Shown here: in pieces, positions 11,844-63,512 of the stretch
Layout of the letters: every line of letters begins with the position of its first letter
How positions within the stretch are numbered: position 1 is the first letter of the stretch
From: Eledone cirrhosa
Taxonomy: Eukaryota
NCBI GenBank assembly: GCA_964016885.1
Contig: OZ024743.1
Coordinates: 215,202,001 to 215,266,000, forward strand
Direction of reading: 5' to 3'
DNA: 64,000 bases
Translations under genes and position numbers: made by a program
Notes under the pieces: generated by a model
The model's database searches: none
Seen by the model: the letters and a program-made list of their open reading frames with translations, nothing else
Told to the model about the DNA's origin: nothing

Positions 11844-11993
11844 GTTAATATATATAATGAAATAAATATGGTTTTACAAATATAGTTTCCATTTATTTAA
11901 TATCGTAAATATACTCCAAATACTTGTTGAGTGCTTTTATATCAGTTATAAATATTTACTAGTTGTAACATAACAATTTAAATATAACTTTCC

Positions 11994-12430
<437 letters not shown>

Positions 12431-12586
12431 TTGTTATACTTTGGGAGGGTCATGTTGCCAATAAGAAACACACGCACCAGTTGCTTTCACTTCAATTTAA
12501 TTTAATATATATTTATAAATTTACAAATTTATAAATTTCTGGTTGGTTGGTTGGTTCCACAACCAGATAGTTGTTTATATATATAT

Positions 12587-12631
12587 AGTCATAGTTCTTT
12601 CGTCACACACTCTGTGACCTCTTCAGTGACT
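12587..12631 (-). ncRNA. Minimal type I hammerhead ribozyme (family A pseudo-LTR)
   Basis: Exact reverse complement of 16168-16212. Confidence 0.75.
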
Positions 12632-12935
12632 GGGGATTTCTTTCTTCGTTTCTGTGCCTTTCCTTTCTTCTATCCTACGCCATTTTGTTTGTGTGTGGGT
12701 TGCGTGCTCAGTTTGCGCATGCGCCACATCCGGGTGTCTGTGTGTGTTTGTGTTCATTTTTCTATTTTTATATTTTTATATTTATATTTGTTTGTTTATT
12801 TATTTATTTATTGTTGGTTGGTTGTTTGTTCTATGTGTGTGTGTGTTTTCATTTTGTCTTGTGTGTGTTTTCATTTTGTGTGTGTTTTCAATTGTAAGTT
12901 GTTTATATATGTGTGTGTGTGTTTTCATTTTGTCC

Positions 12936-15659
12936 TTAATTGTAAGTTGTGATGTTGCTGTTCCACTCATATTTTCTATTTAATTTTGGTTTTAATTCTT
13001 TTATGCTTACTGCCTCTGTAATTTGCCTAAACATTGCGTCTTTCTTGTGTGTGGATTCTATTTTTATTTCTATGCTCTCTAATTTACCCCTGTGTTCTAT
13101 CTTAGCATGTTGGTAGAGCACAGATGATTCTTTACTATCTTGGAGGTCTCGCCAGTGTTCATTTATTCGTTCCCCTATACTACGAGCTGTCTCACCTATG
13201 TACACTATATTTTTGTTTCTACATTGTCCCTCAGTACATCTTATGCTATATACTACATTTCTAGTTTTACAGTTAATATGGGGGCTTATTTTACAGGTTA
13301 TACATTTCTTATCTATACATGAGGGTCTTTGGAACGGGTATGTCTTGCTAATAAGTGTTTTTACGGAGGTACCAGGTCTTTCTACTATCTTAATATTGAG
13401 ATTATGTTTCTTTAGGGCCCTTCTAAATTTGTAGGCTAGTTCACCTCTAGGGGTTGTATTGATGAACATTACACTCTGGTATTTATTGCTATCATACCAT
13501 GAGTTTATTCTATTGGCCTTGTTCTTAGTTCTTTCTATTCTATTCCAAAATTTGCTCCTATACAAGGGGCAGGTCCCATTTATGTCATTATTTACAATTT
13601 TTTCCCATTTGGTTTCTGGCTCCTTTATACACTCTGATTCTATCTCTCTGATTGTAGCCAGAGAACTGCATACGGTGGATGAAGTGTTGTATGTGTCTCT
13701 CTAGTTCTTCGGGGTTGCACATGCGGGACACATTTCTCATCACCCGTATCAAATCCGCAATCAGTATGTTGATTTTGGTATGGTCCGAAATGGCCGAGTT
13801 TCGGTGGATCAGATGTTTGGAAGTCATGGGTTTGGCATAATGGGAATGGAGGATTTGTTTTTGGTTGTTAATAGTATCTAACCAGAGCTCTGTGTCTAGT
13901 ACAGGTAATCGATGGTTGGGGTGTCTACTTGGGTAGTCTATAGTAACTCTAATGCTCTGGTGGATGGAGTTTGCTATTTGCTGGATGCTTTCCATTGTGT
14001 TTTTCTCAGGTTCCTGACTGTTCTTTAGTGGGGGTGTCTTAACTACGATGTTTATATCATCTACGTAGCGGGAGTACATTATCAGGGTTAATCTGTCTTC
14101 TAATTGTTCTTTAAGTTTTTGTTTAAGTCTACTGTCCCACCATACCATGAACAAGTTAGCTATGTCGCCTGCAATGCTAACACCAATGGCTGCTCCTTCC
14201 TCTTGGGCATATGTTTTACCATTAAATTTGAACATATGTTCCTTAAGGGTTAATTTTATGCTGGCCCCTACCGCATGTGCAATCATTTTCTTCAGTTCAT
14301 CGTGGTTTTCGGGTGTCCGTATGGCTCTGGTCCACCCGTTCCATCTATCTGTGTGGGTTTTCTTGGCCATTGAGGTAATGGTAGGTGGTCTGCCTCTTGC
14401 TGGTCTTGTAGGGCACAGGTTGCTAAGGTCATAAGTGTCTAGGTAACTATTACTATGGGTAAGCTTAAGTAGAAGTCCCAGCTCACTGCTATCAATCCCA
14501 CGGAACTCAACCTTGCTCTCGCTGATCATGTCGACGCATTTCTCCACAGCAAAATCCACGTCAATAGATGGATACAGGGACACAACATCCATACTGCCTA
14601 TTATGCAGTTTGTTAGGTCCCCAGATCGGTTACCCGCGTCGATTCTGCTGAGGAGTGCCTCCGTGCTGTCACACACATCTGGGGACATCTCAATGATGGG
14701 GCGTATGATCAGGGAGAGGAAGTAGGACAGTCTGTAGTTACTAGCAATGTTAGCCCCACAGACTGGCCGTGTTGGTGGTCCCGCGACAGGGTCCCAGCCC
14801 GTTTTATGGTCTTTTCGAAGCCCATACAACGCCGGCACGTCATTGTTCCAGGCCTGGAAGTTGTTGGCAGTCCTTTTGTTGGGCTGCATTATATTTGTCC
14901 ACATCACCATATGGGCATTGAGGGTTTTTTCTCTGTCCTCATGCTCCTGTGGTGTTACCTCTCTTGTGTTAGTGATGTGGGGTTGCATTGCCTGGATGTA
15001 GTTTGGCAGGCTGTCAACCGACATTCTGCCAGACTTGTCTGTTGGAAAGCATGCTATCTCTCCATTACGCGAGCGCTGCATGAGCTTACGCAAGCCATTT
15101 GCAGATTCCTCTCCCAGTTGCTGGGCCTCTATTCTATTATGCTTCTTGCTATACTGTTCTATAATATTTCTAAGTTCGGATTTAGCTATACTAAATTGTG
15201 CTTCTGTTTGTTCATCGACCTGCGACGGCAACTGCGTGCGTTTGTTAAATGGCAAAGTCGTGGCGTGGACTCGTCGTAGGTCGAATGATTTATCGGAGTG
15301 GTTATAAAACGGAGAGTTCCAGGCTGCTGCTTTATGTGTACTTGCGCTATTGTTAGTTGTGTTGTTTCTATTTCCACCAACAGCAGCAGCCTCAGCTTCA
15401 TGGTTGTTTCTATGTCTCTCATAATTACTCCTGTCTCTTTCCACTGGCTCAATGTTGTTATCTACCCTATTTTGTGTGTCTGTGTGTTCGTCTTGGTTAT
15501 TCTCTTTGTCCTTAGTCTCCCTACTCCTTTTAATCCTATTACTTTCTCTTATTTCTCTGATTTCTGTGCTACTGTCATTACTTGTTTTCTGTGTCTGTGT
15601 GTTTGTTAAGATTGTAGTGGTGGTGAGAGGCATTGAATGTGTGTGTGTTGTTGTTGTTG
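12936..15659 (-). pseudogene. 5'-truncated PLE RT/GIY-YIG ORF, one frameshift near 13615
   Basis: Track ORFs 13588-15675 (RT: MDVVSLYPS, YSRYVDD) and 12936-13565 (VVY...YIGETARS...ER..EH...RQITEAVSI...LN). Starts at the position equivalent to 17427. Confidence 0.92.
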
Positions 15660-15863
15660 GATAGTAAAGAATCATCTGTGCTCTACCAACATGCTAAGAT
15701 AGAACACAGGGGTAAATTAGAGAGCATAGAAATAAAAATAGAATCCACACACAAGAAAGACGCAATGTTTAGGCAAATTACAGAGGCAGTAAGCATAAAA
15801 GAATTAAAACCAAAATTAAATAGAAAATATGAGTGGAACAGCAACATCACAACTTACAATTAA
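15660..15863 (+). pseudogene. 3' fragment of PLE ORF (end of GIY-YIG domain)
   Basis: DSKESSVLYQHAKIEH...RQITEAVSIKELKPKLNRKYEW; starts at the position equivalent to 19946. Confidence 0.9.
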
Positions 15864-16345
15864 GGACAAAATGAAAACACACACACACATATATAAACAA
15901 CTTACAATTGAAAACACACACAAAATGAAAACACACACAAGACAAAATGAAAACACACACACACATAGAACAAACAACCAACCAACAATAAATAAATAAA
16001 TAAACAAACAAATATAAATATAAAAATAGAAAAATAGAAAAATGAACACAAACACACACAGACACCCGGATGTGGCGCATGCGCAAACTGAGCACGCAAC
16101 CCACACACAAACAAAATGGCGTAGGATAGAAGAAAGGAAAGGCACAGAAACGAAGAAAGAAATCCCCAGTCACTGAAGAGGTCACAGAGTGTGTGACGAA
16201 AGAACTATGACTATATATATATAAACAACTATCTGGTTGTGGAACCAACCAACCAACCAGAAATTTATAAATTTGTAAATTTATAAATATATATTAAATT
16301 AAATTGAAGTGAAAGCAACTGGTGCGTGTGTTTCTTATTGGCAAC
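15864..16345 (+). repeat. Family A pseudo-LTR / inter-ORF spacer (also 20132-20613, 24434-24916; inverted 12454-12935)
   Basis: ~480 nt identical between units: AC-rich tract, HHR, ctggtt...aaccag hairpin, AT-rich hairpin, then CAAC-ATG. Confidence 0.9.
16168..16212 (+). ncRNA. Minimal type I hammerhead ribozyme (family A pseudo-LTR)
   Basis: agtca CTGAAGA g gtcaca-gagtg-tgtgac GAAA gaac TA tgact: 5-bp stem I, 6-bp stem II, predicted cleavage after CUA at 16207. Confidence 0.78.
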
Positions 16346-19300
16346 ATGACCCTCCCAAAGTATAACAATATCGGTTTCAACACACGATTTCAGATAAAGA
16401 ATCTTGCTAAACAAATTCAGAAACGAAATATCGTAAGCCTTAGCCAGGCTAACAAGATACTGAAAACCACCATGTTCTGTTGTCTACGAAAAACCATAAC
16501 ATCTCGACAACTACACTTCATAAAACTGTGCACCACTTCTAGAATCTACACCAACACCATCAATACCGACGTTAGAAGATTACAACTCACCAAAAAACAA
16601 GCAGATAGGCTAAAACGAACTTTAATTCTAAACATAAAAAAGAAGATCTATAGAGAATTAAGTCATCAAGAAAAACTAAAGCGTAACCTAATAGATGAAA
16701 TATCTAAAATCACCACACCAGCAGAAAAACTAACATTTATAAGCCTTATACGCCCCGAAGAACAGTACATTACTCAAGAATGTAATAAGCACTTTAACAG
16801 AAAATTAAAGTGGCTTAAACAGGCAAAGCTAAATCGGGATACTATAGAGTATACCAATAGATATCCCGACAAAATTGACGGTATCAACATGGCCGACACC
16901 TCATTATCTGAAGAGTTCAACAATGAAAATACCAACATTTATGGAAACACGAAAATAGATAGTAATGAAATGTCTGTGTTACGTTTGCCACCCAAATTTG
17001 CGACATTCAAGAAGGTAAATATGATTAGTTGTCTGTCAGAAATAGAAAAATCATTTACGAAACTACGCTGGAGCATCAAAAACAAAAACAAAAGCAACAA
17101 TATACGCACACACATATACAACACACATCCCAACAACAACAGACACACAGACACAAACAATAACAACAACAATAGCAACATACCCAGATACAATACCAAC
17201 AATAGCAACATACCCAGATACAACAGACACGCAGACACAAACAACAATAACAACACACACGGAGACAACAATAACAACAACACACACATCAACAACAACA
17301 ACAACAGCAACATACCCAGATACAACAACAACAGACACGCAAACACAAACAACAATAACAACACACACAACAACGATAACACACACACACACGGAGACAA
17401 CAACACACATCAACAACAACACACATCAACAACAACAACACACACACATTCAATGCCTCTCACCACCACTACAATCTTAACAAACACACAGACACAGAAA
17501 ACAAGTAATGACAGTAGCACAGAAATCAGAGAAATAAGAGAAAGTAATAGGATTAAAAGGAGTAGGGAGACTAAGGACAAAGAGAATAACCAAGACGAAC
17601 ACACAGACACACAAAATAGGGTAGATAACAACATTGAGCCAGTGGAAAGAGACAGGAGTAATTATGAGAGACATAGAAACAACCATGAAGCTGAGGCTGC
17701 TGCTGTTGGTGGAAATAGAAACAACACAACTAACAATAGCGCAAGTACACATAAAGCAGCAGCCTGGAACTCTCCGTTTTATAACCACTCCGATAAATCA
17801 TTCGACCTACGACGAGTCCACGCCACGACTTTGCCATTTAACAAACGCACGCAGTTGCCGTCGCAGGTCGATGAACAAACAGAAGCACAATTTAGTATAG
17901 CTAAATCCGAACTTAGAAATATTATAGAACAGTATAGCAAGAAGCATAATAGAATAGAGGCCCAGCAACTGGGAGAGGAATCTGCAAAGGGCTTGCGTAA
18001 GCTCATGCAGCGCTCGCGTAATGGAGAGATAGCATGCTTTCCAACAGACAAGTCTGGCAGAATGTCGGTTGACAGCCTGCCAAACTACATCCAGGCAATG
18101 CAACCCCACATCACTAACACAAGAGAGGTAACACCACAGGAGCATGAGGACAGAGAAAAAACCCTCAATGCCCATATGGTGATGTGGACAAATATAATGC
18201 AGCCCAACAAAAGGACTGCCAACAACTTCCAGGCCTGGAACAATGACGTGCCGGCGTTGTATGGGCTTCGAAAAGACCATAAAACGGGCTGGGACCCTGT
18301 CGCGGGACCACCAACACGGCCAGTCTGTGGGGCTAACATTGCTAGTAACTACAGACTGTCCTACTTCCTCTCCCTGATCATACGCCCCATCATTGAGATG
18401 TCCCCAGATGTGTGTGACAGCACGGAGGACCTCCTCAGCAGAATCGACGCGGGTAACCGATCTGGGGACCTAACAAACTGCATAATAGGCAGTATGGATG
18501 TTGTGTCCCTGTATCCATCTATTGACGTGGATTTTGCTGTGGAGAAATGCGTCGAAATGATCAGCGAGAGCAAGGTTGAGTTCCGTGGGATTGATACCAG
18601 TGAGCTGGGACTTCTACTTAAGCTTACCCATAGTAATAGTTACCTAGACACTTATGACCTTAGCAACCTGTGCCCTACAAGACCAGCAAGAGGCAGACCA
18701 CCTACCATTACCTCAATGGCCAAGAAAACCCACACAGATAGATGGAACGGGTGGACCAGAGCCATACGGACACCCGAAAACCACGATGAACTGAAGAAAA
18801 TGATTGCACATGCGGTAGGGGCCAGCATAAAATTAACCCTTAAGGAACATATGTTCAAATTTAATGGTAAAACATATGCCCAAGAGGAAGGAGCAGCCAT
18901 TGGTGTTAGCATTGCAGGCGACATAGCTAACTTGTTCATGGTATGGTGGGACAGGAGACTTAAACAAAAACTTAAAGAACAATTAGAAGACAGATTAACC
19001 CTGATAATGTACTCCCGCTACGTAGATGATATAAACATCGTAGTTAAGACACCCCCACTAAAGAACAGTCAGGAACCTGAGAAAAACACAATGGAAAGCA
19101 TCCAGCAAATAGCAAACTCCATCCACCAGAGCATTAGAGTTACTATAGACTACCCAAGTAGACACCCCAACCATCGATTACCTGTACTAGACACAGAGCT
19201 CTGGTTAGATACTATTAACAACCAAAAACAAATCCTCCATTCCCATTATGCCAAACCCATGACTTCCAAACATCTGATCCACCGAAACTCGGCCATTTCG

Positions 19301-20131
19301 GACCATACCAAAATCAACATACTGATTGCGGATTTGATACGGGTGATGAGAAATGTGTCCCGCATGTGCAACCCCGAAGAACTAGAGAGACACATACAAC
19401 ACTTCATCCACCGTATGCAGTTCTCTGGCTACAATCAGAGAGATAGAATCAGAGTGTATAAAGGAGCCAGAACCAAATGGGAAAAAATTGTAAATAATGA
19501 CATAAATGGGACCTGCCCCTTGTATAGGAGCAAATTTTGGAATAGAATAGAAAGAACTAAGAACAAGGCCAATAGAATAAACTCATGGTATGATAGCAAT
19601 AAATACCAGAGTGTAATGTTCATCAATACAACCCCTAGAGGTGAACTAGCCTACAAATTTAGAAGGGCCCTAAAGAAACATAATCTCAATATTAAGATAG
19701 TAGAAAGACCTGGTACCTCCGTAAAAACACTTATTAGCAAGACATACCCGTTCCAAAGACCCTCATGTATAGATAAGAAATGTATAACCTGTAAAATAAG
19801 CCCCCATATTAACTGTAAAACTAGAAATGTAGTATATAGCATAAGATGTACTGAGGGACAATGTAGAAACAAAAATATAGTGTACATAGGTGAGACAGCT
19901 CGTAGTATAGGGGAACGAATAAATGAACACTGGCGAGACCTCCAAGATAGTAAAGAATCATCTGTGCTCTACCAACATGCTAAGATAGAACACAGGGGTA
20001 AATTAGAGAGCATAGAAATAAAAATAGAATCCACACACAAGAAAGACGCAATGTTTAGGCACATAAAAGAATTAAAACCAAAATTAAATAGAAAATATGA
20101 GTGGAACAGCAACATCACAACTTACAATTAA
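16346..20131 (+). CDS. Penelope-like element polyprotein: RT + Cys-rich linker + GIY-YIG endonuclease (1261 aa from ATG)
   Basis: Open frame from CAAC-ATG (MTLPKYNN); motifs PTDKSG, RPV, MDVVSLYPS, GAAIG, YSRYVDD, LPVLD, CxxxxCxxC linker, VVY..C...C...YIGETARS, ERINEH, H...H, LN. Carries an 18-nt in-frame deletion in the endonuclease. Confidence 0.93.
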   Translation: MTLPKYNNIGFNTRFQIKNLAKQIQKRNIVSLSQANKILKTTMFCCLRKTITSRQLHFIKLCTTSRIYTNTINTDVRRLQLTKKQADRLKRTLILNIKKKIYRELSHQEKLKRNLIDEISKITTPAEKLTFISLIRPEEQYITQECNKHFNRKLKWLKQAKLNRDTIEYTNRYPDKIDGINMADTSLSEEFNNENTNIYGNTKIDSNEMSVLRLPPKFATFKKVNMISCLSEIEKSFTKLRWSIKNKNKSNNIRTHIYNTHPNNNRHTDTNNNNNNSNIPRYNTNNSNIPRYNRHADTNNNNNTHGDNNNNNTHINNNNNSNIPRYNNNRHANTNNNNNTHNNDNTHTHGDNNTHQQQHTSTTTTHTHSMPLTTTTILTNTQTQKTSNDSSTEIREIRESNRIKRSRETKDKENNQDEHTDTQNRVDNNIEPVERDRSNYERHRNNHEAEAAAVGGNRNNTTNNSASTHKAAAWNSPFYNHSDKSFDLRRVHATTLPFNKRTQLPSQVDEQTEAQFSIAKSELRNIIEQYSKKHNRIEAQQLGEESAKGLRKLMQRSRNGEIACFPTDKSGRMSVDSLPNYIQAMQPHITNTREVTPQEHEDREKTLNAHMVMWTNIMQPNKRTANNFQAWNNDVPALYGLRKDHKTGWDPVAGPPTRPVCGANIASNYRLSYFLSLIIRPIIEMSPDVCDSTEDLLSRIDAGNRSGDLTNCIIGSMDVVSLYPSIDVDFAVEKCVEMISESKVEFRGIDTSELGLLLKLTHSNSYLDTYDLSNLCPTRPARGRPPTITSMAKKTHTDRWNGWTRAIRTPENHDELKKMIAHAVGASIKLTLKEHMFKFNGKTYAQEEGAAIGVSIAGDIANLFMVWWDRRLKQKLKEQLEDRLTLIMYSRYVDDINIVVKTPPLKNSQEPEKNTMESIQQIANSIHQSIRVTIDYPSRHPNHRLPVLDTELWLDTINNQKQILHSHYAKPMTSKHLIHRNSAISDHTKINILIADLIRVMRNVSRMCNPEELERHIQHFIHRMQFSGYNQRDRIRVYKGARTKWEKIVNNDINGTCPLYRSKFWNRIERTKNKANRINSWYDSNKYQSVMFINTTPRGELAYKFRRALKKHNLNIKIVERPGTSVKTLISKTYPFQRPSCIDKKCITCKISPHINCKTRNVVYSIRCTEGQCRNKNIVYIGETARSIGERINEHWRDLQDSKESSVLYQHAKIEHRGKLESIEIKIESTHKKDAMFRHIKELKPKLNRKYEWNSNITTYN

Positions 20132-20435
20132 GGACAAAATGAAAACACACACACACATATATAAACAACTTACAATTGAAAACACACACAAAATGAAAAC
20201 ACACACAAGACAAAATGAAAACACACACACACATAGAACAAACAACCAACCAACAATAAATAAATAAATAAACAAACAAATATAAATATAAAAATAGAAA
20301 AATAGAAAAATGAACACAAACACACACAGACACCCGGATGTGGCGCATGCGCAAACTGAGCACGCAACCCACACACAAACAAAATGGCGTAGGATAGAAG
20401 AAAGGAAAGGCACAGAAACGAAGAAAGAAATCCCC

Positions 20436-20480
20436 AGTCACTGAAGAGGTCACAGAGTGTGTGACGAAAGAACTATGACT
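20436..20480 (+). ncRNA. Minimal type I hammerhead ribozyme (family A pseudo-LTR)
   Basis: Identical to 16168-16212. Confidence 0.78.
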
Positions 20481-20613
20481 ATATATATATAAACAACTAT
20501 CTGGTTGTGGAACCAACCAACCAACCAGAAATTTATAAATTTGTAAATTTATAAATATATATTAAATTAAATTGAAGTGAAAGCAACTGGTGCGTGTGTT
20601 TCTTATTGGCAAC

Positions 20614-23600
20614 ATGACCCTCCCAAAGTATAACAATATCGGTTTCAACACACGATTTCAGATAAAGAATCTTGCTAAACAAATTCAGAAACGAAATATC
20701 GTAAGCCTTAGCCAGGCTAACAAGATACTGAAAACCACCATGTTCTGTTGTCTACGAAAAACCATAACATCTCGACAACTACACTTCATAAAACTGTGCA
20801 CCACTTCTAGAATCTACACCAACACCATCAATACCGACGTTAGAAGATTACAACTCACCAAAAAACAAGCAGATAGGCTAAAACGAACTTTAATTCTAAA
20901 CATAAAAAAGAAGATCTATAGAGAATTAAGTCATCAAGAAAAACTAAAGCGTAACCTAATAGATGAAATATCTAAAATCACCACACCAGCAGAAAAACTA
21001 ACATGTATAAGCCTTATACGCCCCGAAGAACAGTACATTACTCAAGAATGTAATAAGCACTTTAACAGAAAATTAAAGTGGCTTAAACAGGCAAAGCTAA
21101 ATCGGGATACTATAGAGTATACCAATAGATATCCCGACAAAATTGACGGTATCAACATGGCCGACACCTCATTATCTGAAGAGTTCAACAATGAAAATAC
21201 CAACATTTATGGAAACACGAAAATAGATAGTAATGAAATGTCTGTGTTACGTTTGCCACCCAAATTTGCGACATTCAAGAAGGTAAATATGATTAGTTGT
21301 CTGTCAGAAATAGAAAAATCATTTACGAAACTACGCTGGAGCATCAAAAACAAAAACAAAAGCAACAATATACGCACACACATATACAACACACATCCCA
21401 ACAACAACAGACACACAGACACAAACAATAACAACAACAATAGCAACATACCCAGATACAATACCAACAATAGCAACATACCCAGATACAACAGACACGC
21501 AGACACAAACAACAATAACAACACACACGGAGACAACAATAACAACAACACACACATCAACAACAACAACAACAGCAACATACCCAGATACAACAACAAC
21601 AGACACGCAAACACAAACAACAATAACAACACACACAACAACGATAACACACACACACACGGAGACAACAACACACATCAACAACAACACACATCAACAA
21701 CAACAACACACACACATTCAATGCCTCTCACCACCACTACAATCTTAACAAACACACAGACACAGAAAACAAGTAATGACAGTAGCACAGAAATCAGAGA
21801 AATAAGAGAAAGTAATAGGATTAAAAGGAGTAGGGAGACTAAGGACAAAGAGAATAACCAAGACGAACACACAGACACACAAAATAGGGTAGATAACAAC
21901 ATTGAGCCAGTGGAAAGAGACAGGAGTAATTATGAGAGACATAGAAACAACCATGAAGCTGAGGCTGCTGCTGTTGGTGGAAATAGAAACAACACAACTA
22001 ACAATAGCGCAAGTACACATAAAGCAGCAGCCTGGAACTCTCCGTTTTATAACCACTCCGATAAATCATTCGACCTACGACGAGTCCACGCCACGACTTT
22101 GCCATTTAACAAACGCACGCAGTTGCCGTCGCAGGTCGATGAACAAACAGAAGCACAATTTAGTATAGCTAAATCCGAACTTAGAAATATTATAGAAACA
22201 GTATAGCAAGAAGCATCATAATAGAATAGAGGCCCAGCAACTGGGGAGAGGAATCTGCAAATGGCTTGCGTAAGCTCATGCAGAGCTCGCGTAATGGAGA
22301 GATAGCATGCTTTCCAACAGACAAGTCTGGCAGAATGTCGGTTGACAGCCTGCCAAACTACATCCAGGCAATGCAACCCCACATCACTAACACAAGAGAG
22401 GTAACACCACAGGAACATGAGGACAGAGAAAAAAACCCTCAATGCCCATTATGGTGATGTGGACAAATATAATGCAGCCCAACAAAAGGACTGCCAACAA
22501 CTTCCAGGCCTGGAACAATGACGTGCCGGCGTTGTATGGGCTTCGCAAAAGACCATAAAACGGGCTGGGACCCCTGTCGCGGGACCACCAACACGGCCAG
22601 TCTGTGGGGCTAACATTGCTAGTAACTACAGACTGTCCTACTTCCTCTCCCTGATCATACGCCCATCATTGAGATGTCCCCAGATGTGTGTGACAGCACG
22701 GAGGACCCTCCTCAGCAGAATCGACGCGGGGTAACCGATCTGGGGACCTAACAAACTGCATAATAGGCAGTATGGATGTTGTGTCCCTGTATCCATCTAT
22801 TGACGTGGATTTTGCTGTGGAGAAATGCGTCGAAATGATCAGCGAGAGCAAGGTTGAGTTCCGTGGGATTGATACCAGTGAGCTGGGACTTCTACTTAAG
22901 CTTACCCATAGTAATAGTTACCTAGACACTTATGACCTTAGCAACCTGTGCCCTACAAGACCAGCAAGAGGCAGACCACCTACCATTACCTCAATGGCCA
23001 AGAAAACCCACACAGATAGATGGAACGGGTGGACCAGAGCCATACGGACACCCGAAAACCACGATTGAACTGAAGAAAATGATTGCACATGCGGTAGGGG
23101 GCCAGCATAAAATTAACCCTTAAGGAACATATGTTCAAATTTTAATGGTAAAACATATGCCCAAGAGGAAGGAGCAGCCATTGGTGTTAGCATTGCAGGC
23201 GACATAGCTAACTTGTTCATGGTAATGGTGGGACAGTAGACTTAAACAAAAACTTAAAGAACAATTAGAAGACAGATTAACCCTGATAATGTACTCCCGC
23301 TACGTAGATGATATAAACATCGTAGTTAAGACACCCCCACTAAAGAACAGTCAGGAACCTGAGAAAAACACAATGGAAAGCATCCAGCAAATAGCAAACT
23401 CCATCCACCAGAGCATTAGAGTTACTATAGACTACCCAAGTAGACACCCCAACCATCGATTACCTGTACTAGACACAGAGCTCTGGTTAGATACTATTAA
23501 CAACCAAAAACAAATCCTCCATTCCCATTATGCCAAACCCATGACTTCCAAACATCTGATCCACCGGAAACTCGGCCATTTCGGACCATACCAAAATCAA

Positions 23601-24433
23601 CATACTGATTGCGGATTTGATACGGGTGATGAGAAATGTGTCCCGCATGTGCAACCCCGAAGAACTAGAGAGACACATACAACACTTCATCCACCGTATG
23701 CAGTTCTCTGGCTACAATCAGAGAGATAGAATCAGAGTGTATAAAGGAGCCAGAACCAAATGGGAAAAAATTGTAAATAATGACATAAATGGGACCTGCC
23801 CCTTGTATAGGAGCAAATTTTGGAATAGAATAGAAAGAACTAAGAACAAGGCCAATAGAATAAACTCATGGTATGATAGCAATAAATACCAGAGTGTAAT
23901 GTTCATCAATACAACCCCTAGAGGTGAACTAGCCTACAAATTTAGAAGGGCCCTAAAGAAACATAATCTCAATATTAAGATAGTAGAAAGACCTGGTACC
24001 TCCGTAAAAAACACTTATTAGCAAGACATACCCGTTCCAAAGACCCTCATGTATAGATAAGAAATGTATAACCTGTAAAATAAGCCCCCATATTAACTGT
24101 AAAACTAGAAATGTAGTATATAGCATAAGATGTACTGAGGGACAATGTAGAAACAAAAATATAGTGTACATAGGTGAGACAGCTCGTAGTATAGGGGAAC
24201 GAATAAATGAACACTGGCGAGACCTCCAAGATAGTAAAGAATCATCTGTGCTCTACCAACATGCTAAGATAGAACACAGGGGTAAATTAGAGAGCATAGA
24301 AATAAAAATAGAATCCACACACAAGAAAGACGCAATGTTTAGGCAAATTACAGAGGCAGTAAGCATAAAAGAATTAAAACCAAAATTAAATAGAAAATAT
24401 GAGTGGAACAGCAACATCACAACTTACAATTAA
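20614..24433 (+). pseudogene. Second full-length family A ORF, frameshifted after ~22197
   Basis: Colinear with 16346-20131, with many small insertions between ~22197 and ~24012; retains RQITEAVSI. Confidence 0.88.
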
Positions 24434-24737
24434 GGACAAAATGAAAACACACACACACATATATAAACAACTTACAATTGAAAACACACACAAAATGAAA
24501 ACACACACAAGACAAAATGAAAACACACACACACATAGAACAAACAACCAACCAACAATAAATAAATAAATAAACAAACAAATATAAATATAAAAATAGA
24601 AAAATAGAAAAATGAACACAAACACACACAGACACCCGGATGTGGCGCATGCGCAAACTGAGCACGCAACCCACACACAAACAAAATGGCGTAGGATAGA
24701 AGAAAGGAAAGGCACAGAAACGAAGAAAGAAATCCCC

Positions 24738-24782
24738 AGTCACTGAAGAGGTCACAGAGTGTGTGACGAAAGAACTATGACT
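24738..24782 (+). ncRNA. Minimal type I hammerhead ribozyme (family A pseudo-LTR)
   Basis: Identical to 16168-16212. Confidence 0.78.
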
Positions 24783-24997
24783 AATATATATATAAACAAC
24801 TATCTGGTTGTGGAACCAACCAACCAACCAGAAATTTATAAATTTGTAAATTTATAAATATATATTAAATTAAATTGAAGTGAAAGCAACTGGTGCGTGT
24901 GTTTCTTATTGGCAACATGACCCTCCCAAAGTATAACAATATCGGTTTCAACACACGATTTCAGATAAAGAATCTTGCTAAACAAATTCAGAAACGG

Positions 24998-26660
<1,663 letters not shown>

Positions 26661-28550: not shown

Positions 28551-28925
28551 ATGGATTGTAAGGTACAATCCACTTATTGTCAATTGTATGTTTTTGAGTT
28601 CCTTGTTATCGTTGCTGTTGTTCCTCCATCTTCTGGTTTTCTCTCTCTAGATAAGGGATATACTGTGACATCTGTCCTGGGATTGGCAGTATCTATCTAT
28701 CTACCTTACGATGGACACATGTGCTGAGCTCGCTCGGTAAGTTTTGTTTAAATTCATCCGGAAATTGTAAACTGTTATCTTTCATTTTTGTACCATTTTG
28801 TAGAGGGACTGCCAGGTCAAATTTTGATCTGGTTGGTCTCTCAAAATATTCTGCGCCTTTGGGCGAAATAGTATTGTAAACATTTTATCTTTTGGAAAAC
28901 TTCGAAAAACCCTATTTTGAGAAAA

Positions 28926-30776
28926 ATGGCTGAAGCATCTTCACCATCAATCAAAGAAGGAAAGGGGAAGTCATACTCACAGCTTCCCCCTGCCACTGTC
29001 ACAGCAGCAGATGCCAAAGGCAGAGGTCAGAGAGAGGAAGAATTGTCTTCACCTTTTGACCGACCACTAGATGTAGCCACAACTATACAAGCATTTGAAA
29101 ACAACAACAACAACAACGACAACAACAGCAACAATAATGACAACAAAAACAACAACAACACAAACGTCACAAGTATCCACACACAAAACGAGAAAGACAA
29201 CAACAACAACAAAGATGAAAACAACTCAAACGACGAGAAACAAAACAATACTAAAATCCAAAGCGAAAACAAAATATCTTTTGCACAAACGGCTAAATTA
29301 TCAGTCGCGTATGTGCTGGAAGACATTTCAAAAGCAAAAGAAATGCTGGAAAAAGCCAAGAAATATGTATCTTTTGGCGAAAACGGTTCGTTTTCTATAC
29401 ATTCACCTCCAGAACTAAAAAAACAGACGGAATTACGAACTGTCGTATTCCGAACAATTTTAAATAAAACAAAAAAACCATCACAACCATCTCAAGCTGA
29501 AACTCAGTTAGTATTGAAAGAAGCAATGAGAGACATCACTTTTATACAAAAGGATAAACTCTATGGGAGTTTATCCATATTGATGAAAGACGAATTGGCG
29601 GCGAAAAAATACTCTGTGTCGCCAATTCGGTCCACACACTACGCCGTCTTCCCCACCTACATGGGTAAAAAAACCCAGAGGATATGGATAACCACCATCA
29701 CCCCAAACATAAACTACTGGTGGTTACTAACCGGTTTCCTCAATTTAGACGAGGACAACCTCATTTCAATAGGGAAGGCATCCGGCGACGCGTTCAGTGC
29801 AACGAGCATCGAAGTTATGACCCAAATAAGGCCAGAACGCATCGCCCAAATCCCTGACCGTGTCATGCTGGATGACCGTACCCACCTCAACATTATTGTG
29901 GAGGGTAGGCGTCCCTCCTGTTACCTCCTCTGTGGTAATAGAGGTCACCTGAGGGCTACCTGTCCCCAGCTCACACAGAAAAAAACACTGCTACCAACAC
30001 CAACACCACCCCAACAACAACAACAAAAACAACCACAACAACAACAACAGAAACCAACAACCCCACCACCACAACAACAACAACAACAACAAACACGTGA
30101 AAAAATAACACAGAATACTGTCCCACCCAATCCCTCCCCACCCAAAACAAATACAAAAACACACACACCGCAAACACTACCAGAAAACATACCCCTCCCA
30201 CCCAACAAGGAAGACGAACCCCTTTCGTCGCAAGACGAAAAAGATCCCTTCCAACAAGTAAAAAGAAAGAAGAGGAGACGCACCACAGACACACGTTAAC
30301 TTTAACCCCCCCCCCCCTCCAAGAGAACACAAACTACACACAAACCACCCCTCCCTGTCACACAACACTAACTGCTACACAAAAAAAGACCTTACAATAT
30401 ACATACATGAACACAGACAACAAATAATTACGGAAAACAATTTCAGCAAACCCTTCGGTCCAAACTGAAGGGCCTAACTTTATAACTGCTGTGGGACTAC
30501 CTCATTTAAAAATGATAAAATCCCAATGCACTTGTACAAAACACTGAAAATAAATTTCACGGAGGACGTGGGCCCCCCTGCGCCAAACCAATCAACCGGG
30601 TCCTCCTAAAAAATGTCACCCCCCACCCCACCCAGACACCCACTCAACCACAAACACCCCAACCCCACAACACACCGATGCCCCTTCACTTCCACAAACC
30701 ACCACCCCACCCAACAACCCATCCCCAACCAGCATGGAAATTGAGCGGCCCGTTTCCCGGGACGCAGAGAGGTAAG
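28926..30776 (+). pseudogene. LINE ORF1 (gag-like, CCHC knuckle), open to 30299 then disrupted
   Basis: MAEASS...VEGRRPSCYLLCGNRGHLRATCP and a Pro/Gln-rich tail; probable original stop at GAGAGGTAA (~30775), just before ORF2. Confidence 0.75.
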
Positions 30777-30799
30777 TGCCTGTTCTCCTTACCACCAAC

Positions 30800-33700
30800 A
30801 TGGCTGTGCTAAGAGTAGGGTGTCTAAATGCGCGTGGCCTGGGCTCGTCTTGGAAGCAAGAAATGCTTCTAAATGACCTCAGGTCACAATCTATAAATAT
30901 GATGGTTATCTGTGAGGCCCGGATCAGCAGCATGCGGCAGCTAGCCCCCACCTATGACGACTTTGAGATGCACGCATCTCTCTGTCAGCCCGGAGGTGGG
31001 GGTGGGGTTGTCTTTCTGCTGCAAAAACATATGGGCCTTGCAACACAGATAGTTCACTTGGACCCAGGGGGTCGACTGGTGGTGCTGGACCTTGGCAGTG
31101 GTGAAGGTAGAGCCTTTAGGCTGGTAGCCGCATATGCCCCTTTTGGGACAGAGCGGCCCGACTTTTTCCAGCGCCTGGAGTCTTTTCTAGGGACGTCCCG
31201 TTCCCTGCTCTTAGTGGGGGATTGGAATGGTATCATGGATGCACGTTGGGACTATGCAGGGGCATGTCCCGATAGAGAGGGGTGCAACAGCCTCAAGGGG
31301 TTACTCGGCCGATTTGACCTGGCCGATAGATTTCGACTAGATTTTCCGACGGTACCAACCTGGTCTTGGTCAAATCGCAGCGGGTCATCTAGGTCGTACC
31401 TAGATATATTTTTAGTTAGAAATAAGGACAGGGACTTTTTAAGTTGTCCAGAAATGCTCATGGTTGGCTACTCAGACCACAAGTTGGTGACCTGCATGGT
31501 CAACCTTGATAGAACGCATAGACAGGGCCCCGGTTACTGGAAGCTCAACTTGTCCTTGCCGGCAAGTAGAGCCTATAGGGATCGGATTAGTACGTTAGTT
31601 AAGGAACGGTTGACTGGAGCGATCGTCAACAGCAGGTGGTGTGTATCTCTAAGATTAGGTTAGTCTCGATAGAATTTAGTAAGGTTCTAGCTGCGAATAG
31701 GAAGGAAAGGGAGCTAATAGATAGATAGATAGAGTAGAAGATGCAATTAGAAGCGGAGACGTGGCCAGAGTGCTAGCGTCGAGAACGGCTTTGAGCCAGT
31801 TTTTCGACGCGAAGCACGAAGGCTGCGTTGTCCGAAGTAAAATACGTGCTCTAGGGAAGGAGGGGACCAAAGCTGTGAGCTGGGCTCGCGTGACAGAGGC
31901 CAACAGTGGAACTAAATCCACCATCCGGTCTTTGCGAGACCTGGATGGACGGGCGATTCTTGAGCCTAAGCAGATGTGTGAGGCCTTTCAAAGACAATTT
32001 GCCCGACTGCTCGGAAGGGGCGGGGAGCCGGTTGGGAATGTGGACTTCGGTCCATACCTCGACGGCCTGCCGCGTCTCTCGGACAGGGAGGCGAAGTCCT
32101 GCGAGGAGCCGATTTCAGCCGCTGAGATAGAGGACGTGCTGGGCCAATGCGGCAAACGCAAATCCCCGGGTCTCGATGGTCTTCCTTACGAATTATATCT
32201 AGCTATGCCGGACTTGTTCCCCGATCTCCTCGGGGCGGTCTACTGCAACTGGCAACAGAACGGGAGAATTCCCTGTAGTGTGACCAAGGGCGTAGTCACG
32301 CTAGTGAGGAAGGACGAGAACAAGGGGGACGAAATAAGTAACTTCAGGCCCATAACTCTGCTAAATACATAGTTACAGATTTTGGCCAAGGTGCTAGCAA
32401 AGAGGTTGGCGCTTGTCGTGGGCAACCTGGTGAGAGATGCGCAGACATGCGCTATCCCGTCCAAGTCCATCCATGACAACCTCCACCTCATGCGATACAT
32501 CATAGAGAGGGTTGGGAACGAACCCGGCTTTGGTGGGGCTCTGATCAACTTGGATCAATCTAAGGCGTTCGATAGGGTCGACCATGGTCACCTGGATGCG
32601 GTGCTAGTGGCGGCAGGTTTCGGACCCGTGTTCAGGGGCTGTATCACTGCTATGCACAGCAGCCGCATCTGCTCTAGGGTCAAGGTGAACGGCTACCTCT
32701 CGGAGCCGTTCGAAATCGCGCGGTCCATCCGACAAGGGTGCCCTCTCCTCCCTTCTGTATGTGTTGACTCTCGAGCCACTATTGCGGAAGTTGGAGTTGT
32801 TGCAGGGCATCCCTTTGGAACCGGAATTGCGGAAAACGGTGTCGGCCTACGCTGATGACGTGACAGTAATGCTGTCGACGGCCTCCGAAATCGAGGCGGT
32901 CGGCACCTTACTGGAGGAGTACGAAAGGTTCACAGGCGCTAAGCTGAACCGGGACAAGTCGATCGGTTTGCAACTCGGCACGTGGAGGGGCAGACCGATG
33001 CCCTCCGATGGCGTCGTCGGACGCTGGACGGAGGGCCCGGTGAAGTTCCTCGGGGTTTGGTTCGGACCGGACCTCCAGGTGGAGAAGAACTGGGCGGAGG
33101 TTACGAACAGGGTGTTTGCACTGACCCAGAAGTGAGCCAGTTGCAAACTATCCCTGAAAGGTCGGGCGGAGGTGGCGAACACCTATATAGCGTCCGTCAT
33201 CTACTACCGCTTGACCGTAGTGCCCTGCCCAAGGGAAACCCTCACCAAGATGGACCGCGCGCTCTTCCAATTCCTTTGGAAGAGGCGGGCGCCTATGGTG
33301 AGGAGATCCATCTGCTGTCAACACCCTTCGAAAGGAGGGCTGGCGATGCCGTGGCTAATGATGCGTAAACACGCATTAAGGCTACGGCACCTCTACGTAT
33401 TCCTCACCGGTCAACCGGTGTGGGCCTCGTTTGTGAGACGAACCTTTCCCTGACTCGTTTCACTCACAGAGCTGCAATCCTGGGTCAAGCAAAGACCGAG
33501 AAAACTGGGTGCCTGGCACACTGAGTGTGCCCAGGCGCTCACCGCCCTCTAGCAGGCGGATCCGGTTATTAGTGGAGACTCCACCGCAACATTCTATAGA
33601 GGGCTGGTACGCAGCAGGTGCGACGATGCCCTCGGAGAAGCCCTAGACATGGATGAGGATGAACTGGCCAGCCTGTTCGGTAGGACATTCAGCCCGGGAC

Positions 33701-34230
33701 CTATGGACAACTTCCAGAAGTCCCTGGCCTGGCAGTGCTACCGAGGGGCTCTTCCCGTCCGAGAAAAGCTCTACAGACACGGGCGCCCGGGTAGGGACCC
33801 CGCCAAAAAGATCTGTCCCAGATGCGTGTGCGACGAGGAAACCGTTGCACACGCATTGGTACACTGCTCGGGCGTAGCCGATCTGTGGGGCTATGTCGAA
33901 CAACTGCTGTCAAGGGTGGGACCCATCCGGTTGACCACCGAGTCTATTGTAATGATCAAGCCGCCTCCCCCCTTCAAAGATGAAGGAGACTCGGTGTTTC
34001 TGTGCGTAATAGCCATGGTGAAAGAAGTTGTATGGTGGACGCGTCTGAAAGGACTGAGGTCAGGCACCTTTCTCTCTGGCCAACAACTGGTCCGTTTCTT
34101 CCGATATCATTTCGGAAGAAGGATCAGGATGGAGAGAGAGGTGCTCTACCCCAGTCGTTTTTATGAAAGGTGGGTGAAAGTGGCGAGAATGGCCCGTGTG
34201 AATGGGCCTTCTCTTTACATAAGCCTGTAG
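30800..34230 (+). pseudogene. LINE ORF2 (apurinic endonuclease + reverse transcriptase)
   Basis: LNARGL, YAP, VGDWN, YLD, SDH, GYWKLN, SPGLDGLP, FRPITLLN, LDQSKAFDRV, SIRQGCP, AYADD, CPRC...ETVAHALVHC; several stops and frameshifts. Confidence 0.92.
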
Positions 34231-34529
34231 GTGGAAAAGAGGAAGGAACGAGGGAGGACCCCCTCTCTGTGCTCCTGAGGAAAAGGGTTGCACACTTTTT
34301 TCGGGGGTGTGTGCGACCCCCCAAGGCGCCTCCTCTCTATTGAGGATTTTGTTATAAATTTTATTTTTTGTTATATTTTATTTTATTTTTATACATTGTT
34401 ATTGCCTCCTCCTTATTGAGGACGCCTTTTTGTGTAAACTCCCCCCTTTGTACTTGTCCCACTTTTGATGCCCTGGTGGCAAATAAAAGAAACATATCTA
34501 TATATATATACATATATATATATAGCTTT

Positions 34530-36352
34530 ACATGGTTGCCTATTCAGATCACAACTAGTCACCTGCATCGTCAACCATGATAGACCTCATAGACTGGTAC
34601 CCGGATACTAGAAGCTGAACATGTCGTTAACGACGCGTAAAGCCTACAGTAGATGAATAAGTAGTTTAGTTAAGCGCCAGATGACAGGAGCCATCGTCAG
34701 CAATAGGTGATGGTGCTCTCTCAAGAGAGCAATTAGAGTAGAGTCCATAGCTTTTAGCAAAGGACTAGCTTTTGAGAAAGAATAAACAGAGAGAGAACTG
34801 GTAGCCAAGGTAGATGAGGCGCTTAGGAGTGGCAACGCAGCTAACGGGCTAGCAACGATAACGGCACTGGACCAGTTCTTCGATGCGATACACGAAGGCT
34901 GCGTTGTCAAGAGTAGATCACGTGCTCTAGCAAAAGCTGTTAGCTGGGCCCGAGTGGCAGAAGCGAAAAGTGGCAACAAGTTTACGATTCGGTATTTGAA
35001 AGACCAAAAACGTCGCGTGCTACTTCATTCCAAGAAGATGTGCACGGCCTTTCAGCGGCACTTCGCGCAACTGTTCGAGCAGAGCGATGTGCCGAACAGG
35101 CAATAGATTTCGCTTCATACTTCGACGGCCTGCCGTGACTCTCGAGCATGGACGTCAAGTTCTGCGAAAGACCGATCACAGCCGCTGAGATACGGGACGC
35201 TCTAGGCCGCTGCGGGAATCGCAAATCACCCTGTCTAGATTGTCTACCCTATGAGTTTTACATAGGCATTCCGGACTTATACTCTTGCGTGCTCGAAACC
35301 GTGTACTGCAACTGCCAGCAGCACGGGATAATTCCCAGTTCTGTAGGCAGGGGTATAGTAACGCTGATCAGGAAAGACGAGAACAAGGGGGACGAACTAA
35401 TCAACTTTAGGCCCATAACACTCATAAACACAGAGTTATAGATTTTGGCCAAGGTATTAGCAACGAGGCTGGCGCTTGTCGTCGAGAACCTGGCGGGAAA
35501 AGCCCAAACATGTAGAATTCCAACCAGGTCCATACACGGCAACCTCCACCTAATGCGATACATCATAGAGAGGGTCAGGTGTAAACCCAGTTTCGATGGG
35601 GCTCTGATCAATTTAGATCAGTCTAAGGGGTTTGATAGGGTCGATCATGGATACTTGGAAGCAGTTCTCAAGGCGGCCGGTTTCGGACCCGTCTTCAGAG
35701 GCTGGATCACAGCCATGCATACCAACATCTGCTCGACAGTCAAGGTGAACGACTACCTATCGGAGCCGTTCCGTATCACGCGTTCCATCCGACAGGGATG
35801 CTCTCTCTCCTCTATTCTGTACGTGTTGACTCTCGAGCCACTACTGCAGAAGTTGCAGCTTTTTACAGGGCATCCCTTTGAAAGCGCGACTGCGAAAAGC
35901 GGCGTCGGCGCATGCCGACAACGTCACAGTAATGGTGTCGGAAACCATGAAAATCGTGTCGTTCGGCACCTTACTTAAGGAATACGAAAAACTTACAGGA
36001 GCAAAACTCAACCGGGACAACTCGGAACGTGGAGAGGCAAACCGATGAAGTCCAACAGCGTCGTCGGACGCTGGACGGAAGGACCGGTGAAATTGCTCGG
36101 GGTCTGGTTCTCAGGTGGAGAAAAACTGAAACGGTCAAGATATCTGCGCTCAGCAAGATGTAGGCAGAGTGCAAACTATCCATGAAAGGTCGAGCGGAGG
36201 TGGCGAACAGTTTTATAGCGTTCTACCTCTACTACCGCTTAACCGCCCTGCCTTGTCCCCGTGAATATCTCACCAAAATGGAACACATGCTCTTCCAATT
36301 CCGTTGGAAGAAGCAGGCGTTCTTGTTGACGAGCTCCGTCTGCTGCCAGCAT
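34530..36352 (+). mobile_element. Older Tx1/L1-clade LINE fragment (ORF2 internal)
   Basis: SPCLDCLPYE, FRPITLINTEL, LDQSKGFDRVDH, SIRQGC; more diverged from the flanking copies. Confidence 0.85.
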
Positions 36353-36384
36353 TGTATTAATTCGGAAATAAAGACTCTACGGTA

Positions 36385-45513: not shown

Positions 45514-45516
45514 AAC

Positions 45517-58830: not shown

Positions 58831-59020
58831 TATAAGCTTTCACCGTATTTTAGACTAAAGAAATTTCTAGCCTGATAGTGGGGTTTATAACCCTCGGAGA
58901 AATGGAAAAAGATGAGTGTTGCCGTACGGCAACACTCATCTTTTTCCATTTCTCCGAGGCTTATAAACCCCACTATCAGGCTAGAAATTTATTTAGTCCA
59001 AAATACGGTGAAAGCTTATA
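58831..59020. repeat. 190-bp spacerless palindrome
   Basis: 95-bp arms centred on GCCGT|ACGGC at 58925/58926, with only a few mismatches. Confidence 0.93.
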
Positions 59021-63467: not shown

Positions 63468-63512
63468 ATTGCCCTGATGAGTCCTTAATAGGACGAAACA
63501 TTGTTGGCTAAT
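63468..63512 (+). ncRNA. Minimal type I hammerhead ribozyme, canonical core
   Basis: att-gcc CTGATGA gtcct-taat-aggac GAAA catt G TT ggc-t-aat: 5-bp stem II with G10.1-C11.1, near-palindromic ACATTGT; ends a long AT-rich PLE-like UTR before (TA)n. Confidence 0.75.

Follow-up and report, generated by a model that had tools for sequence, protein, structure and literature searches.

The window analysed, a 64,000-nt stretch of contig OZ024743.1 of Eledone cirrhosa, was found to contain a Penelope-type element that is very abundant; the copy is an ordinary one, not unusual in this genome, where other multi-unit arrays are also present. The array layout is real: the hammerhead motif recurs four times without change, two parts meet head to head and both outer ends lie in (AT)n (Table 1). 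The four-part layout originally described, with outer ends ~165 and ~225 nt past the ribozyme cut, was borne out, with measured values of +164 and +224 (coordinates are counted from the predicted cut, with 16207/16208 = 0). The array copies share ~99% identity over kilobases, which is far above chance, yet usual for the family; a self-BLAST of the whole window was dominated by microsatellites and was left aside. The inversion junction, which had been described as clean, was confirmed in its position, and is either blunt or formed through 3 nt of microhomology (GAT) with a single G added. Both outer ends finish in AATAT running into (AT)n and, because AATAT merges into the microsatellite, the exact end junctions are uncertain by ~4 nt.

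Table 1. Features of the Penelope-type array in the window.
Position	Strand	Feature	Basis or remark
11993..12427	.	(AT)n target microsatellite, left flank	sequence
12428-15659	-	left arm overall	segment comparison
12428..12591	-	left 3' end, short tail +1 to +164 past predicted cut	26 nt inside next ORF
12587..12631	-	minimal type I hammerhead, left arm; predicted cut 12591/12592	exact match to other three
12592..15659	-	5'-truncated unit, last 3,068 nt: RT, linker Zn finger, GIY-YIG, pLTR	sequence
15659..15660	.	head-to-head junction	blunt, or GAT microhomology + one G
15660..16207	+	548-nt 3' fragment (endonuclease end, 3' UTR/pLTR), up to first cut site	
16097..16122	+	zone -111..-86, 5' start of short sister copies; putative transcription start	
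16168..16212	+	minimal type I hammerhead 1; CUA cut predicted at 16207/16208	sequence, fold, variation
16208..20475	+	full unit 1, 4,268 nt	family length 4,286
16371..16431	+	two family-wide end points, +164 at 16371 and +224 at 16431, here read through	
20436..20480	+	hammerhead 2; predicted cut 20475/20476	exact match
20476..24777	+	full unit 2, 4,302 nt	
24738..24782	+	hammerhead 3; predicted cut 24777/24778	exact match
24778..25002	+	right 3' end, long tail to +224, then (AT)n	86 nt inside next ORF

The ORF of unit 1 (16346-20131, + strand, ATG at 16346) encodes 1,261 aa, with an Asn-rich low-complexity stretch, an RT carrying YVDD and the DKG motif in a variant form (DKSG), a CX4CxxC linker and a GIY-YIG domain. 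A Pfam RVT_1 match was obtained at E 9e-5, below the curated cut-off, and the Pfam scan of the full ORF returned 0 families; 179 homologues were found, the best named one being from Octopus vulgaris (69%). The C-terminal GIY-YIG was read from the translation as VVY-x-C-x4-C-x-YIGET with two His (CCHH motif). The homologue P0045 matched Pfam GIY-YIG above the cut-off; the query ORF itself gave no Pfam GIY-YIG match and reached PDB 1mk0 only at E 0.27. Upstream of the GIY-YIG, the linker Zn finger C-IDKK-C-IT-C fits the CX2-5CxxC pattern between RT and EN that defines the Neptune and Nematis clades (PMC8557442). By these sequence features (single RT ORF, C-terminal GIY-YIG, pLTR tandems, inverted copy and pLTR hammerhead) the element is an EN+ Penelope-like element (PLE), as originally predicted, and it carries the Neptune/Nematis linker, which places it by motif with these two clades taken together. 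The Hydra clade (without CCHH, <3 kb) was excluded by the CCHH motif and the 4.29-kb length, the Naiad/Chlamys clade (N-terminal EN, without hammerhead) by the C-terminal EN and the hammerhead, and the Penelope/Poseidon clade by the linker finger, which Poseidon lacks. A non-LTR retrozyme, which is small, non-coding and non-autonomous, was likewise excluded, the 4.29-kb unit encoding both RT and endonuclease.

Units 1 and 2 differ. Near 20061, within the endonuclease, unit 1 has lost 18 nt in frame, a deletion private to it. In unit 2, the ORF is disrupted between ~22196 and 24006, where 15 small insertions and 1 deletion are packed into 1.8 kb, a cluster that is likely unpolished long-read or assembly noise. 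The 5'-truncated left unit shows one 1-nt insertion and a T allele at -179. An active master is an unlikely role for the array as assembled, given the endonuclease deletion of unit 1, the frameshifts of unit 2 and the truncated left arm.

The hammerhead was found as an exact 43-nt stretch at 16170, 20438 and 24740 on the + strand and at 12587-12629 on the - strand. It comprises a stem I (AGUCA/UGACU), the CUGAAGA core, a bulged G, a 6-bp stem II, GAAA and a stem III of 1 bp with a 2-nt loop; the core, the bulged base before stem II and the 1-bp stem III agree with the minimal type I hammerhead of PMC4209133. An Rfam scan of the window reported none of the four motifs at E<=1, the monomer fold was weak (z -1.5) and the tail-region fold was no better than shuffles (z 0.74). 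When two copies were co-folded, the canonical stem III dimer was not the best structure, and loop III is not palindromic. All five variants common to at least 8 of 149 copies sit in 12 tolerated positions of 46 (p=6e-4), these positions having been set from hammerhead rules after the variant table had been viewed. The identification draws on the core motif read in the sequence and on the variation pattern among copies, the latter suggesting a ribozyme under constraint, for which self-cleavage is predicted. A metagenome scan for relatives confirmed none.

The genome-wide tally of 3' ends that had been proposed gave two fixed points, with 14,211 ends at +164 and 12,945 at +224 (~27,000 together) vs 452 read-throughs, and an exact +164 or +224 end was present in 87/97 hammerhead-bearing arms. 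The two sites, 60 nt apart, both finish in AATAT, and we infer that they are internal RT start sites. Unlike ends (one +164, one +224) were found in 41 of the 46 head-to-head pairs within 6 kb (p=2e-8) and in 16/16 young-lineage loci with both ends in view; the long-tail arm was not always the longer one, both orders being found. This pairing, together with haplotypes held in common, upheld the priming of both target strands, and it is likely that the two DNA strands are used simultaneously in writing each insertion. The ends beyond the cut had also been read as a pointer to a circle, which was overstated, since the PLE "tail" produced from internal RT start sites on uncleaved RNA is already known (PMC11167929), so that such ends alone do not point to a circle. 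In that study of PAc from Anolis carolinensis, internal RT start sites, cleavage and extension of both strands and a predicted dimer were reported; in vitro, the ribozyme was dispensable, most of the substrate was unprocessed RNA and none of the reads started from the cut site.

At the other end of the arms, 25/93 stop ~100 nt upstream of the ribozyme, their 5' ends being piled at -86..-111, and in a second sample 10 of ~41 arms start in the same zone. Arms reaching it from beyond +224 never stop there (0/39 vs 25/93, p=6e-5), nor do any of the 25 long arms of an overlapping young set. A sequence-intrinsic RT pause at -100 was rejected, since it is absent on second passage. The zone is likely the transcription start and, because of the pile of 5' ends, the short copy class likely comes from uncut linear RNA; the 0/39 second-passage arms imply that the long copies need a template without the -100 5' end. 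Inside the zone lies a YY1-like motif, with an NRF1-like palindrome ~20 nt upstream. The reference used for motif positions relative to transcription starts was PMC11269187. A linear cleaved template with 5' ends piled at the cut was rejected, as 0/66 5' ends lay within 5 nt of it among arms picked by 3' end, and the weak enrichment near the cut in long arms (7/77 vs 1/48) was not significant (p=0.15). As originally argued, arms of this kind cannot be derived from a simple linear monomer running from cut to cut.

Units and arms of a locus carry common locus-specific variants, unit junctions are seamless, units are mostly uniform, and both arms mostly agree in haplotype and 5' limit. A single allele at -179 was observed in 25/28 two-arm young-lineage loci and, where one arm stopped at -85..-112, its partner was longer in only 1/17 insertions (p=2e-4). 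Uniformity is not complete: an arm at C3:66.55 Mb reads T,T,G at -179, an 18-nt insertion at C4:116.27 Mb is common to two distal units and absent from the proximal one, and the window array has T in the left arm and G,G,G in the right arm, with two other variants common to both. To account for such cases, either a second RNA, a switch of template or a subsequent conversion event would be required. Three was the highest number of pLTRs found in any arm among 89 young-lineage matches and among the other matches listed; an arm with four, a possible linear master, was not seen with exact patterns that may miss mutated-pLTR copies, in assemblies that may collapse arrays. Arms with three pLTRs and further upstream sequence occur in several lineages, two-unit arms at no fewer than five other loci, and near-palindromic junctions in some short sister copies.

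Established points are the type of element, the presence of two fixed ends that pair on opposite strands, the common haplotypes and the -100 limit, which holds for first-pass arms only. An evenly balanced chance is given to the reading of the locus as a head-to-head insertion into (AT)n by two-strand priming at +164/+224, with an RNA circle of ~4.29 kb, produced by ribozyme cutting and ligation, as the template of the multi-unit arm. Transcription would begin near -100/-110 in the pLTR, and a transcript with a single minimal hammerhead would stay uncut and yield short copies ending near -100. Two hammerheads would allow dimer cleavage, with release and ligation of a cut-to-cut monomer. A protein dimer would nick both target strands, RT beginning at +164 and +224 with one site per strand. 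A circle would offer each start site once and no 5' end, so that RT could cross the seamless junction for 0 to 2.8 rounds, multi-round copying requiring strand displacement, and end-joining of the two cDNA ends would create the inversion. The upstream pLTR would thereby be regenerated, with no unit lost per generation.

As the template of the long copies, the circle fits best, at a confidence just short of even. The circular template, one of two originally put forward, gains independent but indirect support from an analysis outside the original proposal, in which 0/39 long arms stop at -100 and no four-pLTR arm was seen with the exact patterns used; it does not extend to the short class. Neither the circle nor a more-than-unit template is novel, a circle model for such elements having been published in 2014 (PMC4209133). 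Minimal hammerheads need dimers (PMC4209133, PMC7229834), and retrozyme RNAs with such ribozymes circularise (PMC7229834). Non-uniform arms speak against a single circle. Weak cut-end enrichment, the co-fold without a canonical dimer, and the sole PLE tested in vitro, in which cleavage was unneeded and unprocessed RNA prevailed (PMC11167929), also speak against the circle reading. More tentative is the broader proposal of an autonomous animal retrotransposon replicating via a 4.29-kb protein-coding RNA circle, with a pair-only hammerhead switch and a two-site RT dimer rolling round it.

Two-site priming could instead act on linear uncut read-through transcripts of long tandem masters (the scenario of PMC11167929, and the second of the two templates originally put forward), which we consider unlikely. 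Such copying was shown in vitro for the anole element, matches the uncut RNA to which the short class is attributed here, and would make non-uniform arms natural if master units were unlike. However, full-length arms would often be expected to stop at the transcript start, where 0/39 do, one unit would be lost each generation, and masters with at least 4 pLTRs would be needed in several lineages, none having been seen (exact patterns, possible array collapse). A shade less probable is a terminally redundant transcript (-100..+224 at both ends) on which the cDNA, having arrived at the 5' terminus of the RNA, jumps repeatedly to the repeat copy lying downstream, in a retroviral-like strand transfer. 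Seamless junctions, common haplotypes, strong-stop-like short copies at -100 and occasional template switches would all be accounted for, but the 0/39 stops would demand a transfer efficiency of >~92% by an RT that is not known to have RNase H, and the constrained ribozyme would be left without a role. Post-insertion unequal exchange between pLTRs, or assembly duplication, is an improbable source of the extra unit. The insertion-dominated error burst of unit 2 is typical of poorly polished long reads, distal units elsewhere carry common variants absent from the proximal unit, and no short-read contig crosses the inversion junction, where the repeat was skipped in placement, a result that favours neither side; yet the private 18-nt deletion of unit 1, which is a microhomology deletion, is absent from unit 2, two-unit arms recur at the five or more other loci, the array ends follow the family pairing rule, and the family-wide 0/39 would be left unexplained. 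Inversion through fold-back self-priming, with an antisense strand as the template, has been put forward for rotifer PLEs (PMC3846280) and is very improbable here: it would suit the near-palindromic junctions of some short sister copies, but the arms here begin 2.5 kb apart in element coordinates without a palindrome, both outer ends are of the fixed target-primed type and unlike by rule, and the anole element gave both-strand-primed products in vitro from sense RNA alone.

Ordinary in itself, the locus is valuable because it gives access to a young family of very high copy number and makes a useful test system. Its insertion footprints bear on the old question of pseudo-LTR regeneration and of tandem and inverted Penelope arrays, for which no obvious mechanism was known (PMC2377424) and mechanistic work has been called for (PMC8557442). 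The one-site-per-strand rule and the contrast between first and second passes predict a start near -100, a circle junction at the cut and starts at +164/+224. Two-strand priming on a circle, if true, would cover Penelope tails, inversions, tandems and pseudo-LTR regeneration by one mechanism, and a real circle would link the mechanism of autonomous PLEs to that of retrozymes and make a kilobase-scale coding circle a transposition template.

Among known systems, the Neptune/Nematis-type C-terminal EN+ PLEs (PMC8557442) share the single RT and C-terminal GIY-YIG ORF, linker, CCHH and pLTR hammerhead, as well as partial tandems, an inverted 5'-truncated copy and a one-end tail (Fig. 2 legend therein) and (TA)n targeting; the tail here is 60 nt vs 30–40, and the Asn-rich N-terminal stretch brings the ORF to its 1,261 aa. 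The Poseidon element PAc (PMC11167929) similarly has two RT start sites inside the ORF start that define the tail, both strands cut and extended, an AT-rich target, a hammerhead near the ORF start and a predicted dimer. In contrast, the cut precedes the ATG by 139 nt here and follows it by 26 nt in PAc, the AATAT ends could pair with an (AT)n primer whereas PAc sites were reported as non-homologous to the target, and each strand here has, as a rule, its own single site, a strand difference that was not seen for PAc in vitro. The commonest form of Penelope in Drosophila virilis (PMC2377424) is also a partial tandem flanked by inverted repeats, with the transcript start inside the upstream pLTR (as is probable here) and a short ORF-start repeat at the 3' end; it belongs to another clade and has an intron in its 5' region, none being shown here, and the arms of the present family extend to 2.8 units. 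Metazoan non-LTR retrozymes (PMC7229834; bioRxiv 10.64898/2026.07.22.740005) share the tandem units punctuated by type I hammerheads and the dimer-dependent cleavage proposed here too, and a PLE origin or mobilisation has been proposed for them; they are 50–1,000-nt non-coding units with circles seen by northern blot, whereas the present element is a 4.29-kb coding unit for which a circle is proposed.

The layout first described for the Penelope-like element (PLE) array at 12428-25002, two head-to-head arms (each one strand's copy up to the inversion junction) with hammerheads in the pseudo-LTRs (pLTRs), was confirmed segment by segment. The array holds four exact copies of a 43-nt hammerhead stretch, both outer ends read AATAT followed by (AT)n, and the arms meet at 15659/15660 either bluntly or through a GAT microhomology with one G added. 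Unit 1 retains an open ORF of 1,261 aa, whose endonuclease part lacks 18 nt through a private in-frame deletion. In unit 2, 15 small insertions and one deletion fall inside 1.8 kb, its first 1.7 kb being free of them, a cluster that probably reflects long-read noise; the number of units assembled at this locus is very probably real.

Features of the array and other elements in the window (tail, element sequence past the cut)
Feature	Position	Strand	Details
Predicted hammerhead cut	12591/2	-	
Predicted hammerhead cut	16207/8	+	
Predicted hammerhead cut	20475/6	+	
Predicted hammerhead cut	24777/8	+	
Minus-strand arm		-	truncated unit 3,068 nt, tail 164 nt
Plus-strand arm		+	in order: 548-nt fragment, 4,268-nt unit, 4,302-nt unit, 224-nt tail
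Separate type I hammerhead	63468-63512	+	Rfam RF00163, 29.1 bits, below gathering score, E 0.0047; unrelated in sequence to the array's family; adjoins (AT)n tract
Second, unrelated Penelope-like family, copy	45515-46801	+	Pfam RVT_1 and GIY-YIG matches; preceded by (AT)n tract
Second, unrelated Penelope-like family, copy	53719-54462	+	
RT-like remnant, 328 aa, YRDD	58976-59962	-	no match in Pfam search; possibly a third PLE type
Several LINE fragments (ORF1-like, AP-endonuclease, RT segments)	28872-40021		L1/Tx1-like by eye

The array's four hammerheads were undetected in an Rfam search of the window. Among 149 copies, from loci picked independently of the ribozyme, five variants were present in at least 8 copies, and all five lay at tolerated positions, in loop II or III, at the outermost pair of stem I or at position 17 (CUU for CUA) (p = 6e-4, indicative only, the tolerated set of 12 of the 46 positions having been assigned after the table was seen). 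These positions follow general hammerhead rules. On its sequence, the element is classed as a canonical EN+ PLE of the Neptune/Nematis type by the definitions in PMC8557442. The best named homologue of its protein is from Octopus vulgaris (69% identity), a species with recently active Penelope families, hammerheads being unmentioned in the available part of that report (PMC13282606).

The array's layout is the norm for its family and the locus is ordinary. The exact 41-nt ribozyme core occurs 4,950 times in the genome, and the tally of 3' ends proposed with the original prediction resolved into two fixed ends followed by AT, 14,211 at +164 and 12,945 at +224 (signed positions are distances from the cut at 16207/16208), with 452 read-throughs at +224; all are exact matches, mutated copies being missed. 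Among 97 core-bearing arms, of 100 matches listed, 50 ended at +164, 37 at +224 and 7 elsewhere, and 3 read through. Arms of two full units were likewise found at five further fetched loci (C1:63.07, C3:66.55, C4:116.27 and C10:43.90 Mb, and contig C1526). The samples were drawn mainly from contig C1, and the family is a good test system. At G000:C1:132947043-132947576, 12 tandem 46-nt repeats cover the family's +224 site, possibly through RT stuttering or as a derived minisatellite.

The two ends are distributed by strand. Head-to-head neighbours within 6 kb paired +164 with +224 in 41/46 cases (expected 50%; p = 2e-8; 191 ends among those listed, C1 0-36.3 Mb), as did 16/16 young-lineage loci with both ends visible; C1526 (164/164) was an exception. 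Either end type can be carried by the longer arm. This first footprint points to one start site per target strand. In PLE insertions the tail is often confined to one end (PMC8557442, PMC3846280). Ends past the cleavage site, from which the original note inferred a circular or uncleaved multimeric template, do not argue for a circle, because in vitro results in PMC11167929 account for the tail: it is bounded by two internal RT start sites, both target strands are cut and extended, and ribozyme cleavage is dispensable.

Farther upstream, 25 of the 93 arms reaching -86 stopped between -86 and -111, the adjacent 25-nt bins holding one each (one local duplicate among the 25, three read-through junctions among the 93). 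In a second sample 10 of about 41 stopped in the same zone, picked by 3' end, and 0/66 arms picked in that way began within 5 nt of the cut. The zone has a sharp upstream edge, contains a YY1-like motif and is closely preceded by an NRF1-like palindrome. Edge and motifs suggest a transcription start, the positional preferences of such motifs around starts being human data (PMC11269187); the copies that stop here were therefore made from RNA uncut at the ribozyme. At read-through junctions (64 of 88 listed rows examined, 12 rows of the 46-nt satellite dropped beforehand), 39/64 reached -86 and 0/39 stopped there (p = 6e-5), as did 0/25 in a partly overlapping young set. An intrinsic RT pause near -100 is thereby ruled out, and the long arms are unbounded by the transcript start, a third footprint that points to two template classes. 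Neither this contrast between first and second pass nor the strict pairing statistic was found in the literature searched; earlier papers may hold related analyses.

Some head-to-head insertions have features of their own. Two short ones, at L046/L047 (C1:23.35 Mb) and L069 (C1:75.74 Mb), have an identical junction (-105/-104) and tail variant; the junction may be a hot one, or a composite may have been copied whole. The junction at L068:772-812 consists of 41 nt of short repeated pieces from the element's 5' zone, resembling polymerase-theta-type templated insertions, and L072:3125-6150 holds two near-identical short ones separated by 2.6 kb, which probably arose by duplication in place.

Both arms of an insertion copy the same source, a second footprint. 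Variants are common to the units and arms within an insertion and differ between insertions; 25/28 young-lineage two-arm loci had a single allele at -179, the window being among the three mixed loci. Two variants common to the window's three long segments did not occur in any other segment compared, one of them being found at six other places. When an arm stopped at -85 to -112 (n = 17), 8 partners also stopped there, 8 were shorter and only 1 was longer (p = 2e-4).

Re-copying of the template is favoured, since linear transcripts of one unit and of long masters both fit poorly. Of the re-copying routes, a cut-and-ligated RNA circle ranked best as the template of the long arms, a tentative reading that falls somewhat short of an even chance. 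It is preferred because cleavage by minimal hammerheads takes a dimer (PMC4209133; PMC7229834), which matches the two template classes: transcripts with one ribozyme would stay uncut and those with two would be processed. Against the circle were counted the lack of uniformity within arms at C3:66.55 and C4:116.27 Mb, the window's split at -179 (T in one arm versus G,G,G), an only slight excess of ends at the cut (7/77 vs 1/48, p = 0.15; three ends placed by eye, one misaligned row dropped), a hammerhead co-fold that gave no canonical dimer, and the absence, in vivo, of reads beginning at the cut in the anole element (PMC11167929). Strand transfer through the terminal repeat is an unlikely route. 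Linear transcripts of unseen long tandem masters are similarly improbable: four or more pLTRs would be needed in several lineages, whereas at most 3 per arm occurred among 89 young-lineage matches and the rows listed. If the template were the linear transcript of a mother with one unit, long arms would have to end near -100, and no such ends were seen. The original circle inference is partly supported, through the 0/39 stops; a circle with more-than-unit reverse transcription had already been proposed in PMC4209133.

Neither the element nor its layout, its tail or the circle hypothesis is new. The ORF's Asn-rich low-complexity stretch (17110-17790, 28% Asn), with length differences of as much as 177 nt among lineages and the frame kept, recalls the Asn-rich inserts described in rotifer Penelopes, although the positions differ (PMC3846280). 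The array's ribozyme has the form of the minimal PLE hammerhead described in PMC4209133, and the layout is the same as that in Fig. 2 of PMC8557442 and in D. virilis Penelope (PMC2377424).
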